Shown: one piece after another, positions 9,736 through 14,538 of the stretch
How positions within the stretch are numbered: the stretch's first letter is position 1
Layout: each line of letters opens with the position of its first letter
Assembly: GCF_024298765.1 (NCBI RefSeq)
Contig: NZ_CP101210.1
Strand: one strand, 5' to 3'
From: Escherichia coli
GTDB lineage: Bacteria; Pseudomonadota; Gammaproteobacteria; Enterobacterales; Enterobacteriaceae
DNA length: 64,000 nucleotides
The notes under the pieces: model-generated
Told to the model about the DNA's origin: nothing
Databases searched by the model: none
The model's input: only the letters and a program-made list of their open reading frames with translations
Translations under genes and position numbers: made by a program

Positions 9736-10890
9736 TTACTTCAGACCGGCAGCATCGCGCAGCAGCTGCGCTTTGTCGGTTTTTTCCCACGGGAAATGTT
9801 CGCGACCAAAGTGACCGTATGCTGCGGTTTCTTTGTAGATCGGGTGCAGCAGATCCAGCATCTGAATCAGACCGTATGGACGCAGGTCAAAGAACTCACG
9901 TACCAGCAGAGTCAGTTGTTCAGAAGGCACTTTCTCGGTACCGAAAGTTTCCACCATGATGGAAGTCGGTTCAGCCACGCCAATTGCGTAGGAAACCTGA
10001 ATTTCACAACGATCGGCCAGGCCAGCAGCAACGATGTTTTTCGCGACATAACGTGCTGCGTACGCTGCGGAACGGTCCACTTTTGATGGATCTTTACCAG
10101 AGAATGCACCACCACCGTGACGTGCCATGCCGCCGTAGGTATCAACGATAATTTTACGACCAGTCAGACCGCAGTCACCCATCGGGCCACCGATAACAAA
10201 ACGACCGGTCGGGTTGATGAAGAATTTGGTGGCAGAAGTCAGCCATTCAGCGGGCAGAATCGGCTTGATGATCTCTTCCATTACCGCTTCTTGCAGCGAT
10301 TTCTGGTCGATCTCTTCAGAGTGCTGAGTGGAAAGCACGACAGCATCAATGCCAACGATTTTGCCGTCGTCATACTGGAAAGTCACCTGGCTTTTCGCGT
10401 CCGGGCGCAGCCACGGCAGAGTGCCGTTTTTACGCACTTCAGCCTGACGCTGTACCAGACGGTGTGCATAGGTGATAGGCGCTGGCATCAGCACGTCGGT
10501 TTCATTGGTTGCGTAGCCAAACATCAGACCCTGGTCACCCGCGCCCTGTTCCAGCGGATCGGCACGGTCAACGCCCTGGTTGATGTCAGGAGACTGTTTG
10601 CCGATAGCGCTCAGAACCGCACAGGAGTTAGCGTCAAAGCCCATGTCGGAATGCACATAGCCAATTTCGCGAACGGTGTTACGGGTGATCTCTTCGATGT
10701 CTACCCAGGCGCTGGTGGTGATTTCGCCGCCAACTAAAACCATGCCGGTTTTTACGTAGGTTTCGCAAGCAACGCGTGCTTTCGGATCCTGTTCGAGGAT
10801 CGCGTCTAAAACGGCATCAGAGATTTGGTCAGCAATTTTGTCAGGATGCCCTTCAGAGACGGACTCGGACGTAAAAAGGTGTTTTGCCAT
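9736..10890 (-). CDS. metK: S-adenosylmethionine synthetase MetK (384 aa)
   Basis: ORF 9736..10902 trimmed to [18 protein letters not shown]. Confidence 0.95.
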
Positions 10891-10930
10891 ATTTAATATC
10901 ACCTAAAGAGAATTTGGTTAGCTCAAACTG

Positions 10931-11197
10931 TTGTGTGGATTTTCTGTGGTAGCGGATCCTACCACGACTCTGCAGGTTAAAAACACTGGCAGTCTGAGTG
11001 TTAATCGGTATGGATGGATTAACATCTGGATGGCTATTTTAGGTCAATTCTTCACCCGATTTCCACTTTTTTTTGAATCGTGTCTCATTCTGTTAAAAAC
11101 GTGGCTGGAAATTTTTCCTGACAATGCTGGCATTCTGCGTATTTATCTTTTGCAATTTTCTGCCATTGTGGGGTATAAAACGCGGCGCGCGGCTTAA
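10931..11197 (+). CDS. yqgD: Small hypothetical ORF at the position of K-12 yqgD; coding status doubtful
   Basis: 88-aa ORF in the metK upstream region; position only, no recognisable domain. Confidence 0.25.
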
Positions 11198-11409
11198 ATA
11201 AAAAGCACACGACGTTTCTTTCGTGTTGCCACTTCCAGCCGGGTTGAAAACAGAGTTTTGGCTTGTGGGTTCGTCTTAACAGGCGGCCGTGGAGGTGATA
11301 CGAAATAATGAACCGTTGTCTGCTGCTTAACCTGTCTCACCGTTCTGGTGAAGATTCGTTCCCCGCACTCTGCATCTCTGCTTTGCATACCTGCCGATGT
11401 TATACCCAT
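11194..11409 (-). CDS. yqgC: Small hypothetical ORF at the position of K-12 yqgC; coding status doubtful
   Basis: 71-aa ORF; position only. Confidence 0.25.
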
Positions 11410-11544
11410 CTCGGCGCTTCTCAGGATTCAAGAGCTGGTTACAGCTACTGAGGACTGAACAAGGGCGCTCTTGTAAAAACAAGAGTTTTCTCGTGGTTTC
11501 GCCGAACTGTCACACTTACGTTCGGTTATGTGCTTAATAATGTT

Positions 11545-11676
11545 ATGAAAAAGAAACCGGTTGCGCAGTTGGAGCGTCAGCATTCACTGCTGGAAAATCC
11601 ATGTGCTTATGGGTTGTTATCGCAGTTCCAGGCTGCGATAGTCGTTAACTGTTTTACACTTAATAAAATAATTTGA
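11545..11676 (+). CDS. yqgB: Small protein YqgB (43 aa) just upstream of speA
   Basis: atgaaaaagaaaccggttgcgcag... translates [43 protein letters not shown], matching recalled YqgB; below the ORF-track size cut-off. Confidence 0.6.
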
Positions 11677-11684
11677 GGTTCGCT

Positions 11685-13661
11685 ATGTCTGACGACATGT
11701 CTATGGGTTTGCCTTCGTCAGCGGGCGAACACGGTGTACTACGCTCCATGCAGGAGGTTGCAATGAGCTCCCAGGAAGCCAGCAAGATGCTGCGTACTTA
11801 CAATATTGCCTGGTGGGGCAATAACTACTATGACGTTAACGAGCTGGGCCACATTAGCGTGTGCCCGGACCCGGACGTCCCGGAAGCTCGCGTCGATCTC
11901 GCGCAGTTAGTGAAAACTCGTGAAGCACAGGGCCAGCGTCTGCCTGCACTGTTCTGTTTCCCACAGATCCTGCAGCACCGTTTGCGTTCTATTAACGCCG
12001 CGTTCAAACGTGCGCGGGAATCCTACGGCTATAACGGCGATTACTTCCTCGTTTATCCGATCAAAGTTAACCAGCACCGCCGCGTGATTGAGTCCCTGAT
12101 TCATTCGGGCGAACCGCTGGGCCTGGAAGCCGGTTCCAAAGCGGAGTTGATGGCGGTGCTGGCACATGCTGGCATGACCCGTAGCGTCATCGTCTGCAAC
12201 GGTTATAAGGACCGCGAATATATCCGCCTGGCATTAATTGGCGAGAAGATGGGCCACAAGGTCTATCTGGTCATTGAGAAGATGTCAGAAATTGCCATTG
12301 TGCTGGATGAAGCAGAACGTCTGAATGTCGTTCCTCGTCTGGGCGTGCGTGCACGTCTGGCTTCGCAGGGCTCGGGTAAATGGCAGTCCTCCGGCGGGGA
12401 AAAATCGAAGTTCGGCCTGGCGGCGACTCAGGTACTGCAACTGGTTGAAACCCTGCGTGAAGCCGGGCGTCTCGACAGCCTGCAACTGCTGCACTTCCAC
12501 CTCGGTTCGCAGATGGCTAATATTCGCGATATCGCGACAGGCGTTCGTGAATCCGCGCGTTTCTATGTGGAACTGCACAAGCTGGGCGTCAATATTCAGT
12601 GCTTCGACGTTGGCGGCGGTCTGGGCGTGGACTATGAAGGCACCCGTTCGCAGTCCGACTGTTCGGTGAACTACGGCCTCAATGAATACGCCAACAACAT
12701 CATCTGGGCGATTGGTGATGCGTGTGAAGAAAATGGTCTGCCACATCCGACGGTAATCACCGAGTCGGGTCGTGCGGTGACTGCGCATCACACCGTGCTG
12801 GTGTCGAATATCATCGGCGTGGAACGTAACGAATACACGGTGCCGACCGCGCCTGCAGAAGACGCACCGCGCGCCCTGCAAAGCATGTGGGAAACCTGGC
12901 AGGAGATGCACGAACCGGGAACTCGTCGTTCTCTGCGTGAATGGTTACACGACAGCCAGATGGATCTGCACGATATTCATATCGGCTACTCTTCCGGCAC
13001 CTTTAGCCTGCAAGAACGTGCATGGGCAGAACAACTCTATCTGAGCATGTGCCATGAAGTGCAGAAGCAACTGGATCCGCAAAACCGTGCGCATCGTCCG
13101 ATTATCGACGAGCTGCAGGAACGTATGGCTGACAAAATGTACGTCAACTTCTCGCTGTTCCAGTCGATGCCGGACGCATGGGGGATCGACCAGTTGTTCC
13201 CGGTTCTGCCGCTGGAAGGGTTGGATCAAGTGCCGGAGCGCCGCGCTGTGCTGCTGGATATTACCTGTGATTCTGACGGTGCTATTGATCACTACATCGA
13301 TGGTGATGGTATTGCCACGACAATGCCAATGCCGGAGTACGATCCAGAGAATCCGCCGATGCTCGGTTTCTTCATGGTCGGCGCATATCAGGAGATCCTC
13401 GGCAACATGCACAACCTGTTCGGTGATACCGAAGCGGTTGACGTGTTCGTCTTCCCTGACGGCAGCGTAGAAGTAGAACTGTCTGACGAAGGCGATACCG
13501 TGGCGGATATGCTGCAATATGTACAGCTCGATCCGAAAACGTTGTTAACCCAGTTCCGTGATCAAGTGAAGAAAACCGATCTTGATGCTGAACTGCAACA
13601 ACAGTTCCTTGAAGAGTTCGAGGCAGGTTTGTACGGTTATACCTATCTTGAAGATGAATAA
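11685..13661 (+). CDS. speA: Biosynthetic arginine decarboxylase SpeA (658 aa)
   Basis: ORF 11673..13661 trimmed to [19 protein letters not shown]. Confidence 0.95.
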
Positions 13662-13806: not shown

Positions 13807-14538
13807 ATGAAAAAAGGGAAAGTACGTAGCGCGTTGATAGCATTAGCCGTGCTGCTGGCCGGTTGTTCCAGTAATGCGCAGTATAATAGCAGTGCATCAG
13901 GCAATGTCGGCACCGCCTGGGGTGGGGATGTGCACTCAACGGTTCAGGGCGTATCTGCTGAGCGAGCTTGGCGCGATCCGGCAGAGATGATCGTTATTAG
14001 TTATTCGACGACTGTTCCTTCGGGCTACGACCGCGTTTATAGCATTCGTATTAACGAACTTGAATATGCTATTCGCGATGGTAATTTTAATTCTCTACCT
14101 ATTACGCGGGTTTATGATTCGTCAAATAATGAACCACGCTATATTGTCCATGCCAGAGTAGGAATGAATTATCAATTATATGTCCGCAATTACAGTCGTA
14201 ACACCAACTACGAGATCGTTGCTACGGTTGATGGCCTGGATGTGCTGAACGGCAAGCAAGGTTCGCTGAATAACAACGGCTATATTGTGAATGCCGGAGA
14301 TTCGTTAGCGATTAAAGGATTCCGCAAAGATAAACATACCGAAGCGGCTTTTCAGTTCGCCAACGTTGCTGATTCCTACGCAGCCAATTCGGCGCAAGGC
14401 GATGTGCGTAATACCGGTGTAATCGGCTTTGCCGCCTTTGAATTACAAGGCCCGGCGCAAAACGCGCTGCCGCCGTGCTCTGGACAAGCCTTTCCGGCAG
14501 ATAACAATGGCTATGCGCCGCCACCGTGTCGGAAATAG
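13807..14538 (+). CDS. Putative outer-membrane lipoprotein of unknown function (243 aa); candidate accessory gene
   Basis: ORF begins MKKGKVRSALIALAVLLAGCSS: a signal peptide with lipobox LLAG|C and Ser at +2. Mature part is Asn/Ser/Tyr/Gly-rich with two C-terminal Cys. Central portion looks AT-rich. Its own SD (gagggaa) and flanking terminators. Confidence 0.7.
   Translation: MKKGKVRSALIALAVLLAGCSSNAQYNSSASGNVGTAWGGDVHSTVQGVSAERAWRDPAEMIVISYSTTVPSGYDRVYSIRINELEYAIRDGNFNSLPITRVYDSSNNEPRYIVHARVGMNYQLYVRNYSRNTNYEIVATVDGLDVLNGKQGSLNNNGYIVNAGDSLAIKGFRKDKHTEAAFQFANVADSYAANSAQGDVRNTGVIGFAAFELQGPAQNALPPCSGQAFPADNNGYAPPPCRK

Follow-up and report, generated by a model that had tools for sequence, protein, structure and literature searches.

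The divergent metK-speA spacer of Escherichia coli: a MetJ operator and a conserved, structured speA leader with two small open reading frames

The metK and speA genes of Escherichia coli are divergently transcribed within the 64-kb stretch of DNA analyzed here (the window), which was 100% identical to NZ_CP033762 and was present in 5425 of 5426 complete genomes. Since the metK coding sequence ends its upstream side at 10890 on the minus strand and the speA ATG lies at 11685 on the plus strand, positions 10891 to 11684 constitute the whole intergenic spacer, exactly 794 bp in length. An earlier reading of this DNA without database searches (the sequence-only reading) had described a divergent metK/speA control region of about 800 bp, which was borne out. 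The spacer, its MetJ operator, the structured leader of speA and two small translated upstream open reading frames (uORFs), yqgG and yqgB, are real, and these elements were already known. The comparative set comprised 75 Enterobacteriaceae species, the genome scan having given the 80 closest species among the matches listed, and RNA pairing was compared in 58 species. An Rfam scan of positions 10500-12100 (E ≤ 1) returned no family. The arrangement suggests two back-to-back promoters, approximately 85 bp apart, each of which would be subject to a separate layer of control.

Table 1. Features of the metK-speA spacer and its flanks (positions are those of the window)
Feature	Position	Strand	Basis or remark
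metK coding sequence, methionine adenosyltransferase	9736..10890	-	ATG at 10890; ORF list and RefSeq annotation
metK 5' UTR, inferred, ~140 nt	10891..11029	-	Predicted promoter; inferred start site
yqgD, annotated ORF, 83 aa	10946..11197	+	K-12 annotation
MetJ operator, three tandem 8-bp metboxes	11012..11035	.	Published weight matrix
metK promoter, predicted sigma-70	-35 TGGAAA 11065..11060; 18-bp spacer; -10 TAAAAT 11041..11036	-	Consensus scan
speA promoter	-35 TTGCAA 11150-11155; 18-bp spacer; -10 TATAAA 11174-11179	+	Region 11150..11187
yqgC, annotated ORF, 71 aa	11194..11409	-	K-12 annotation; antisense to yqgG
Hairpin H1, 5'-proximal	11205..11229	+	Terminator scan; conserved A-run before H1
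Anti-Shine-Dalgarno helix, CACUUCCA : UGGAGGUG	11230-11237 : 11290-11297	+	Predicted to sequester the yqgG Shine-Dalgarno
yqgG, 47-aa uORF (b4784, Pfam PF23505)	11308..11451	+	RefSeq-annotated in essentially every genome
Terminator-like hairpin	11463..11492; stem 11467-11474 / 11479-11486, then UUUUCUC	+	Terminator scan
Hairpin between the uORFs, GCCGAAC / GUUCGGU	11501..11526	+	Compensatory CG48/UA7 and AU34/GC11; in the E. coli fold
yqgB, 43-aa uORF (Pfam PF11036, NCBIfam NF033844)	11545..11676	+	ORF list, annotation, profiles
Candidate PurR box, GCGCAACCGGTTTCTT	11551..11566	.	Inside the invariant yqgB start
AUG1 hairpin, GUUCGCUAUGUCUGACGA : UCGUCAGCGGGCGAAC	11678-11695 : 11715-11730	+	Predicted to bury speA AUG1 (11685) and the last Shine-Dalgarno base
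Second in-frame speA start, Met27	11763..11765	+	Sequence; own GGAGG

On the metK side, the -35 and -10 hexamers of the predicted promoter were near-invariant in the species alignment, with a variable spacer between them. The metK 5' UTR was also conserved, and RNAalifold predicted minus-strand structure in it with some compensatory pairs. The sequence-only reading had expected MetJ boxes upstream of metK, and the scan with a MetJ matrix that it proposed as a check located them: the published matrix gave one match in the 64-kb window, and this match directly adjoins the predicted metK -10 element. Under the criteria of Augustus and Spicer, a MetJ site has at least two adjacent 8-bp boxes, each with at least one quarter of the consensus score, and a sum at or above the consensus; the three boxes, which read AGCCATCC, AGATGTTA and ATCCATCC on the metK strand and score 3.24, 5.86 and 5.86 (sum 14.96 bits, threshold 12.58), constitute such an array. 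They are identical to the published metbox entry for b2942 (metK) and lie 121 nt from the metK ATG. No box matches AGACGTCT at more than 5 of 8 positions, which accounts for the failure to locate the boxes visually. One MetJ site per spacer was found in all 75 species, mostly at 116-122 nt from the ATG, while only 66 of 5000 dinucleotide shuffles of the spacer (1.3%) contained any MetJ site, and 0.4% contained one of equal or better score.

Repression of metK by MetJ is well documented in published work; here the operator site was verified with the matrix. The gene belongs to the E. coli genes known to carry metboxes, its site is included in published regulon lists, and knockdown of metJ increased metK promoter activity. 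With plentiful SAM, MetJ-SAM would occupy the boxes cooperatively, spanning the start site, and so repress metK, a feedback on SAM synthesis. The metK site shares with the rest of the MetJ regulon (metA, metF, metE/R, metJ/BL, metC and metNIQ) the tandem 8-bp metboxes beside or over the promoter and SAM as the corepressor. It is, however, the weakest E. coli entry in the published list, 14.97 bits over three boxes compared with 18.9-31.2 elsewhere, and, unlike other sites of the met regulon, has no near-consensus box and lies unusually far from the start codon because the metK 5' UTR is long.

Two annotated ORFs in the spacer, which the sequence-only reading had considered doubtful, did not gain support. 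The yqgD frame was intact in 4 of the 75 species, all of them Escherichia, and had stops in 21 of 83 codon columns across the 75 species, as off-frame sequence does; it had no match in Pfam and NCBIfam searches. It covers both promoters and the MetJ operator and is positioned 5' of the speA start site, and judged from the alignment it is most likely not a gene. The yqgC frame, intact in 7 of 75 species, is most likely spurious: its conserved N-terminus is the mirror of the conserved 3' block of yqgG on the opposite strand, and a published small-protein study found neither ribosome density nor the tagged protein.

The speA promoter hexamers were invariant in the 75 species, with a variable spacer, and the leader that follows is approximately 500 nt in length with a start at about 11187, in agreement with the published speA 5' UTR fusion, which by primer mapping extends from 11187 to 11684 (PMC7815308). 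The comparison identified 71 local pairs in this leader, which were 96% paired across species, and 203 compensated base-pair cells, compared with 72±8 in shuffled controls (0 of 500 reached 203) and 39-65 when the pairing partners were slid. As judged from this covariation, the speA leader is a conserved structured RNA. Folding energies of single sequences were weak (z-scores +0.3 to -2.5), and comparison between species is the sole basis of the structural argument.

Compensatory changes were found in hairpin H1 (GC30/AU12; AU32/GC8/UA3), in a hairpin at 11271-11276 / 11281-11286 that is enclosed by the predicted anti-Shine-Dalgarno helix (5 of 6 pairs), in a hairpin inside yqgG at 11336-11350, in the terminator-like hairpin downstream of yqgG (UA41/CG17 and UA25/CG13; fold z-score -2.5) and in the hairpin between the two uORFs. 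On the minus strand, the stem of H1 with its U-run resembles an intrinsic terminator, and a comparison of G-U with A-C pairs (8 and 8) was uninformative as to the strand of H1. All eight pairs of the anti-Shine-Dalgarno helix, which is part of the E. coli minimum-energy fold, were held in 57-58 of 58 species, so that this helix gives no covariation information. The helix inside yqgB (11618-11623 / 11635-11640) and the AUG1 hairpin are likewise beyond the reach of covariation, since all three never vary, and their single-sequence z-scores were unremarkable (-1.3 to -1.4). Long-range pairs proposed by RNAalifold, between the 5' end and 11431-11438 and between 11484-11494 and the region of speA Met27, displayed one-sided changes only and were left out.

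The first uORF, yqgG, matched PF23505 with 129.9 bits (cut-off 27) and was newly identified by ribosome profiling from a start peak. It had not been among the ORFs of the sequence-only reading, and it is more leader-like than yqgB; nor had that reading covered the speA promoter with its start site, the structure of the leader or the Rho-dependent termination known from published work. Its ATG was present in 74 of 75 species, and its frame had stops in 1 of 47 codon columns, compared with 8-9 of 46 off-frame. The C-terminal motif TCRCYTH(L/F)GASQDSRAG was conserved, and the N-terminus was variable. In neither uORF did the ratio of synonymous to non-synonymous change exceed that of the off-frames, which indicates that the open frame rather than the peptide as a whole is conserved; purifying selection on the entire YqgB and YqgG peptides was therefore dropped as an explanation. 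Codon-position entropy gave no 3-base periodicity. Within the leader, yqgG is the sole C-rich, G-poor (rut-like) stretch, with 30-35% C and 18-21% G and a C/G ratio that reaches 1.9; YC dimers number 16.7 per 100 nt in yqgG and about 7 in the rest of the leader.

The position of yqgG raises the possibility that it forms, with the terminator-like hairpin, a classical leader-peptide attenuator, in which a ribosome at the yqgG stop would melt the terminator and an earlier stall, for example at Arg codons, would let the terminator form. The hairpin is indeed terminator-like and covarying, it lies 2-20 nt 3' of the yqgG stop in most species, and in 67 of 75 species 2-13 nt separate the stop from the motif associated with the hairpin. 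YqgG has a mean Arg content of 11.7%, and Arg42 is encoded by a rare Arg codon in every case. However, the content is barely above that of one off-frame (10.4%; the other, 7.8%), and the Arg codons are unclustered, being scattered without positional conservation except for Arg30 and Arg42. Furthermore, the U-tract that follows the hairpin is short, no alternative antiterminator pairing was found in the leader, and the published Term-seq tables, in a study that documents Rho dependence, contain no RNA 3' end at or after the hairpin (PMC7815308). We consider this form of attenuation unlikely; the missing 3' end at the hairpin and the scattered Arg codons led us to reject Arg-codon attenuation as the principal model.

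Published RNA 3' ends bear on Rho-dependent termination. Term-seq placed a 3' end at 11301 on the plus strand of the window (K-12 position 3086295, minus strand) and a Rho-dependent 3' end, flagged 'uORF' with a Rho score of 3.09, at 11742 (K-12 3085854) (PMC7815308). The former falls between the anti-Shine-Dalgarno helix, which ends 4 nt earlier, and the yqgG AUG, 7 nt further on; the latter is 57 nt into speA and 12 nt past the AUG1 hairpin. According to the authors, Rho termination of speA is supported by reporter-fusion and northern data, and a likely yqgG-yqgB-speAB transcript was also reported (PMC7815308); in a rho mutant, speA leader transcripts read through. Premature Rho termination within the leader and early in speA, shown by others, would thus be the first step of control on the speA side. 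Because no other part of the leader is C-rich and G-poor, yqgG is, by its base composition, the likely Rho loading site, and since its Shine-Dalgarno lies in an invariant helix, ribosome access to yqgG would decide Rho loading. In this second step, translation of yqgG would mask the RNA and permit read-through, and untranslated yqgG RNA would lead to termination. It is possible that the signal controlling yqgG translation is a polyamine, arginine, an sRNA or a protein.

The study that defined mdtU listed yqgB-speA as a candidate uORF-controlled locus (PMC7815308). Like the mdtU-mdtJI, speFL-speF and tnaC-tnaAB loci, the speA leader has a translated uORF in a long leader with Rho-dependent termination downstream, and, as in those attenuators, the yqgG uORF overlaps a C-rich stretch and has a conserved C-terminal motif and a variable N-terminus. 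The speA leader differs from them in having two uORFs instead of one and in the masking of the yqgG Shine-Dalgarno by an invariant helix; at speA, ribosome arrest in response to a ligand is hypothetical, and the rut site is a candidate assigned from base composition. The peptides of the speA leader are not known to be similar in sequence to SpeFL or TnaC.

The second uORF, yqgB, was recognized by PF11036 (113.3 bits, cut-off 24) and by the equivalog profile NF033844 (90.1 bits, cut-off 35). The sequence-only reading had described a 43-aa ORF with its stop 8 nt before the speA ATG and had suggested leader-peptide-like coupling; the coordinates agree, and the comparison strongly supports the proposed coupling. 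The yqgB TGA (11674-11676) overlaps the speA Shine-Dalgarno (uUGAGGu). The yqgB ATG was present in all 75 species, although the ORF varied from 38 to 90 aa with insertions, and its end was always at a TGA flanking the speA AUG, either 8 nt before it (57 of 75 species) or with the last base 8 nt into speA (18 of 75). An in-frame yqgB-speA fusion was found in none of the 75 species. Stops occurred in 1 of 43 codon columns of the yqgB frame, compared with 13 of 42 off-frame. As regards ribosome occupancy, which that reading had named among its checks, initiation at yqgB was observed by INRI-seq, a cell-free ribosome profiling method, but in vivo detection of the start 'was not possible', for which low abundance is the most likely reason (PMC9825163).

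Immediately downstream, the AUG1 hairpin spans 11678..11730 (minimum-energy fold in E. coli, -23.3 kcal/mol, with a z-score of only -1.4). Its 16 pairs were paired in 99% of cells among the 58 species; 10 of them were invariant and none was compensatory, and the loop of the hairpin coincides with SpeA codons 5-10, which are variable. Third codon positions were invariant in 37% of speA codons 1-30, compared with 5% of codons 31-400. The start at Met27 has its own Shine-Dalgarno, and a shorter SpeA isoform from this start has been described (PMC9825163). We infer, with good support from the comparison, a third step in which yqgB would deliver ribosomes to AUG1, buried in the predicted hairpin from 2 nt past the yqgB stop; on terminating at the yqgB stop, a ribosome would open the lower stem, and initiation or re-initiation at AUG1 could follow. 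The Met27 start, with its strong Shine-Dalgarno, would not need yqgB. Since this second start is independent and located 78 nt downstream, coupling would set the ratio of isoforms rather than switch speA on or off. The stop-to-AUG distance of at most 8 nt and the overlapping Shine-Dalgarno are also found in termination-reinitiation coupling at operon junctions and at activating uORFs, and, as in structure-masked coupling, the start would sit in a predicted hairpin that a terminating ribosome would open. Unlike in the usual cases, the upstream cistron is a uORF of 38-90 aa with variable sequence and not a functional enzyme gene.

Several of these key helices never vary and are therefore equally compatible with constraint at the DNA level, which raises the alternative that the conserved blocks are DNA sites (for PurR, CRP or others) or incidental, and that the ORFs and RNA helices are by-products. 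A PurR-like box lies within the invariant yqgB start; it matches the purF operator at 13 of 16 positions, and PurR reportedly controls speA (He, Choi and Zalkin, 1993). The invariance of the yqgB start could partly reflect such an operator. However, this box, the best hit of the region, agrees with the palindromic consensus at only 11 of 16 positions and is no more than a lead, and a search for CRP sites yielded no convincing candidate, the top one scoring 8 of 10 in the core but being implausibly placed. In addition, four hairpins carry many compensatory changes, far more than in the shuffled and slid controls, both uORF frames are free of stops despite variable sequence and insertions, and both transcription of the region and the action of Rho on it are documented (PMC7815308). 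The DNA-site alternative is very unlikely as an explanation of the conserved blocks as a whole.

Another alternative is that YqgB, and perhaps YqgG, act mainly in trans as small proteins, for example in acid stress resistance or membrane homeostasis, and that their position before speA is ordinary operon organization. In RefSeq and NCBIfam, YqgB carries the name acid stress response protein, which traces to a screen of bar-coded mutants, and overexpression of YqgB elicits a heat-shock response, a sign that the peptide is produced and has an effect; YqgG, for its part, was SPA-tagged on the chromosome in a small-protein study. A 2026 study presents YqgB as a trans-acting, drug-binding protein: the Salmonella yqgB deletion had colistin, acid and virulence phenotypes, and ranitidine bound YqgB by SPR. 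Short motifs are also conserved (KKPVAQ, YGLLS and AIVVNCFTL in YqgB; GASQDSRAG in YqgG, where the codons for D-S-R-A-G vary synonymously). These conserved residues, however, coincide with nucleotide-invariant RNA stems or with the candidate operator, synonymous change is not in excess in either frame, and YqgB varies in length from 38 to 90 aa, its inserted sequence being unrelated. The same 2026 study found speA and speB mRNA and enzyme levels decreased in the deletion strain, as expected of a cis effect, and the phenotypes were relieved by arginine, putrescine or spermidine, which a cis effect on speA likewise predicts. A mainly trans-acting role is possible, if doubtful, and it would be compatible with the cis model.

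In conclusion, the reading favored here, to which a probability of about 0.7 is assigned, is that MetJ represses metK, that translation of yqgG would gate Rho termination in the speA leader, and that yqgB would couple ribosomes to speA AUG1; we infer the last two of these from the comparative anatomy. A further and more tentative proposal is that the speA leader may act as a two-uORF sensor, in which the anti-Shine-Dalgarno helix would gate yqgG, yqgG RNA would load Rho, the GASQDSRAG motif with its obligatory rare Arg codon would sense polyamine or arginine, and yqgB would relay ribosomes to the masked AUG1, thereby setting both how much speA mRNA is present and the proportions of the two SpeA isoforms, long and short.

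The MetJ part of this arrangement is textbook knowledge without any novelty. The speA side touches on an old question, that of feedback by polyamines or arginine on the synthesis of arginine decarboxylase after transcription initiation, for which the literature so far has flagged yqgB-speA only as a candidate. The comparative anatomy adds specifics: a predicted masked Shine-Dalgarno for yqgG, a rut-like yqgG, a yqgB stop pinned to the speA AUG, and a putative hairpin over AUG1. Phenotypes of yqgB deletions, including those behind the recent suggestion that YqgB could serve as a drug target, should be interpreted with caution because they may be cis effects on speA. SAM is produced by the metK enzyme, and speA provides the entry into the route from arginine to putrescine, so both supplies for spermidine synthesis meet at this spacer.

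Genes were placed with the list of open reading frames and with RefSeq annotation for K-12 and an identical strain, and the resulting positions of metK and of the speA start codon (AUG1) make 10891..11684, the coordinates given in the sequence-only reading, the exact 794-bp intergenic spacer. Bases 10700-11900 were 100% identical to NZ_CP033762 and were found in 5425 of 5426 complete E. coli genomes. The yqgB, yqgC and yqgD ORFs named in that reading were all present, but it had omitted yqgG; overall, its observation was confirmed and its interpretation supported. In this strain, speA and speB are separated by a 243-aa ORF (13807..14538, + strand) that has a lipoprotein-like signal (MKKGKVRSALIALAVLLAGCSS) and is a hypothetical protein in RefSeq (WP_024009297.1); in K-12, speB directly follows speA.

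Features placed in and around the metK-speA spacer
Feature	Position	Strand	Remarks
metK	9736..10890	-	ORF list, RefSeq annotation
yqgD	10946..11197	+	83 aa, annotated
metK promoter (predicted)	11065..11036	-	TGGAAA, 18-bp spacer, TAAAAT; adjoins MetJ boxes
speA promoter	11150-11179	+	TTGCAA, 18-bp spacer, TATAAA; upstream of 11187
yqgC	11194..11409	-	71 aa, annotated
Hairpin H1 (5'-proximal in speA leader)	11205-11229	+	clear covariation
Helix CACUUCCA / UGGAGGUG	11230-11237 with 11290-11297	+	never varies; buries yqgG Shine-Dalgarno
Hairpin	11271-11286	+	clear covariation
yqgG	11308..11451	+	47 aa, annotated
Hairpin inside yqgG	11336-11350	+	clear covariation
Terminator-like hairpin	11467-11486	+	clear covariation
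Hairpin	11501-11526	+	clear covariation
yqgB	11545..11676	+	43 aa, annotated
Helix UAUCGC / GCGAUA inside yqgB		+	never varies
16-pair hairpin predicted to bury AUG1	11678-11730	+	never varies
speA ATG	11685	+	ORF list, RefSeq annotation

Among 75 aligned Enterobacteriaceae spacers (633-1039 bp, most 780-860), yqgD was intact in four species, Escherichia only, and yqgC in seven, which bears out the doubt that the sequence-only reading had cast on both. Stops occurred in 21 of the 83 yqgD codon columns, not fewer than in its off-frames, and yqgD lies 5' of the speA start site, spanning both promoters. In a published small-protein study, yqgC had neither ribosome density nor a detectable tagged protein, and yqgG, which is antisense to yqgC, was SPA-tagged and reported as a newly identified small protein from start-site ribosome profiling. 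Ribosome profiling, the check proposed for the small ORFs, was favorable to yqgB in part: its start was detected in the cell-free assay but not in vivo, most likely because of low abundance according to the authors (PMC9825163). Family models recognize the products YqgB (PF11036 and NF033844), YqgG (PF23505) and YqgC (PF17430). Neither three-base periodicity nor an in-frame synonymous excess was found for yqgB or yqgG in the 75-species alignment (ratio of synonymous to non-synonymous change in frame versus off-frames, 0.55 versus 0.57 and 0.57 for yqgB, 0.64 versus 0.71 and 0.57 for yqgG). Codon columns with a stop in any species numbered 1 of 43 in yqgB and 1 of 47 in yqgG, versus 13 of 42 and 8-9 of 46 in the respective off-frames; as judged from the alignment, what is conserved in these two ORFs is open frames and short sequence blocks.

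In one contig of the set, titled 'Chryseobacterium sp. 18061' (locus L023), the metK-speA locus is typically enterobacterial, with a SpeA identity of 96%, and this assembly is probably mislabelled or contaminated.

The MetJ boxes expected upstream of metK were located by a scan of the full window with the information-weight matrix and thresholds published by Augustus and Spicer 2011, in which a single site in 64 kb passed (11012..11035, 14.96 bits; GGATGGAT TAACATCT GGATGGCT). Read on the metK strand, the three boxes (AGCCATCC AGATGTTA ATCCATCC), at 121 nt from the start codon of metK, are identical in every letter to the b2942 entry in Table S1 of that study; no single box shares more than 5 of its 8 positions with AGACGTCT, and this is why the boxes could not be placed by eye. 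Dinucleotide shuffles of the spacer gave any passing site in 66 of 5000 cases and an equally strong one in 20 of 5000, and exactly one three-box site was present in each of the 75 recovered Enterobacteriaceae spacers, in most cases 116-122 nt from the start codon of metK. The hexamers of the predicted metK promoter are conserved in the aligned species and the spacer between them is variable, and in vivo control of the metK promoter by MetJ has been reported in the literature.

The metK 5' UTR (10891..11035, - strand) looks structured and conserved, with a long-range helix (CUCAGACUG / CAGUUUGAG), a covarying hairpin and a conserved perfect 8-bp inverted repeat (TGTTAATC-N10-GATTAACA, ~10999..11024) overlapping metboxes 2-3; it matched no Rfam family. 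On the - strand, H1 (11196..11229) is a stem followed by UUUUU that scores as an intrinsic terminator, and 58 species share the matching A-run. Neither a transcript nor a 3' end is known on this strand at 11196..11229; a possible role of the element is to shield the metK promoter from antisense transcription.

The bounds of the speA 5' UTR were taken from the cloning primers of Adams et al. 2021 (PMC7815308), which mapped to 11187 and 11684, and both hexamers of the speA promoter are invariant in the aligned species, with a variable spacer. According to that study, Rho termination at speA is supported, in the authors' words, by reporter-fusion and northern data, short and full-length transcripts are both enriched in a rho mutant, and yqgG-yqgB-speAB is probably one transcript. 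Of its published RNA 3' ends, K-12 3086295 (window 11301) lies 4 nt past the helix burying the yqgG Shine-Dalgarno, and K-12 3085854 (window 11742; Rho score 3.09, flagged 'uORF') lies 57 nt into speA and 12 nt past the AUG1 hairpin. Both positions fit trimming back to stable structures, as proposed in general terms by the same authors.

The spacer has a mean identity of 75% across the 75 species, with runs of invariant bases; in the same species, 37% of third positions are invariant in speA codons 1-30, and 5% in codons 31-400 (0.88 bits entropy). In 58 leaders, RNAalifold predicted 112 pairs, and compensatory change was present in 23 of these. When the count was restricted to the 71 local pairs of this model, 96% of cells were paired and both-side changes numbered 203 cells, versus 72±8 in shuffles (0 of 500 reached 203) and 39-65 with partners slid by 1-3 columns, so that on comparative grounds the speA leader is a structured RNA. 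The helices at the yqgG Shine-Dalgarno, inside yqgB and at AUG1 are invariant, and covariation is therefore silent on all three. Single-sequence folding energies were unremarkable (z-scores +0.3 to -2.5).

Leader insertions of 50-250 nt were observed in several genera (loci L012, L029/L032/L040/L043/L050/L061/L062, L036/L048, L038/L041/L046/L049/L059 and L010/L053/L058), located just 3' of the start site, in a loop (11247-11255 in E. coli), within yqgG or within yqgB; those within yqgB preserve the open frame, and those within yqgG (L036, L048) truncate its conserved motif.

The yqgB ATG is kept in 75 of 75 species, and the ORF (38-90 aa) runs through insertions in several genera. In 57 species it ends 8 nt before the AUG, as had been noted for the E. 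coli sequence, at a TGA that overlaps the speA Shine-Dalgarno, and in 18 at a TGA within AUGUCUGA, the last base of which is 8 nt into speA; the frame fusing yqgB to SpeA is used in none of the 75. The alignment indicates that both stop sites are fixed by the invariant speA start region, and that the non-trivial point is a yqgB frame open from its ATG to the speA start in every species. The E. coli stop is 2 nt before the base of the predicted AUG1 hairpin, so that a ribosome terminating on yqgB would unwind the lower stem and open the hairpin over AUG1. Together, the stop at the speA start in 75 of 75 species and the predicted hairpin support the coupling suggested by the sequence-only reading, the junction having the apparent anatomy of translational coupling. 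A second in-frame speA start, Met27 (11763), has its own GGAGG and lies 3' of the AUG1 hairpin. Within the invariant first codons of yqgB, 11551..11566 (GCGCAACCGGTTTCTT) resembles a PurR operator, matching the consensus at 11 of 16 positions and the purF operator at 13 of 16; PurR control of speA has been reported.

The main alternative to coupling is that YqgB acts in trans as a protein. Its RefSeq name, 'acid stress response protein', traces to a mutant screen, and overexpressed YqgB induced heat-shock proteins and displayed no arrest-peptide behaviour. In a 2026 study, the authors of which treated YqgB as a drug-binding protein, a Salmonella yqgB deletion lowered speA and speB mRNA, enzyme levels and spermidine content, and the phenotype was relieved by arginine, putrescine or spermidine. 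These deletion data are as expected from loss in cis of the uORF and leader structure.

The yqgG ORF was found in nearly all species (ATG in 74 of 75), with a variable N-terminal half and a conserved C-terminal motif, TCRCYTH(L/F)GASQDSRAG. In nearly all species its stop lies 2-20 nt before the terminator-like hairpin, most commonly 9 nt (42 species), then 2 nt (15). An attenuator with an intrinsic terminator at this hairpin is less likely, because no RNA 3' end after it is listed in Adams et al. 2021 (PMC7815308). The yqgG ORF is the sole leader stretch richer in C than in G (30-35% versus 18-21%, C/G up to 1.9), with 16.7 YC dimers per 100 nt versus about 7 in the rest of the leader. Together with the Rho dependence and the invariant helix over the yqgG Shine-Dalgarno, this C-rich composition is most simply accounted for by a model in which ribosomes translating yqgG would cover a putative Rho loading site, so that yqgG looks like a gate for Rho. 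For arginine sensing through the Arg codons of yqgG there is at best a weak hint: Arg accounts for 11.7% of residues and Arg42 (11431..11433) is a rare codon in all 70 orthologues (AGG 40, AGA 21, CGG 7, CGA 2; CGU or CGC in none), but the Arg codons show no clustering. Arg30 (11395..11397) is CGA in 50 of 61 orthologues. Through wobble, the third-position changes at Arg42 and Arg30 would also permit a possible pairing to the leader 5' end.

The genes, the MetJ operator, the leader transcript and Rho-dependent termination have all been described before, and the finding is therefore already known. What is added is detail and not a new kind of system, namely the yqgB stop fixed at the speA AUG in 75 of 75 species, the invariant predicted AUG1 hairpin, the masked yqgG Shine-Dalgarno, and yqgG as the sole rut-like stretch of the leader. 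These comparative results provide a specific mechanism, open to testing, for a locus so far only flagged as a candidate in the literature.
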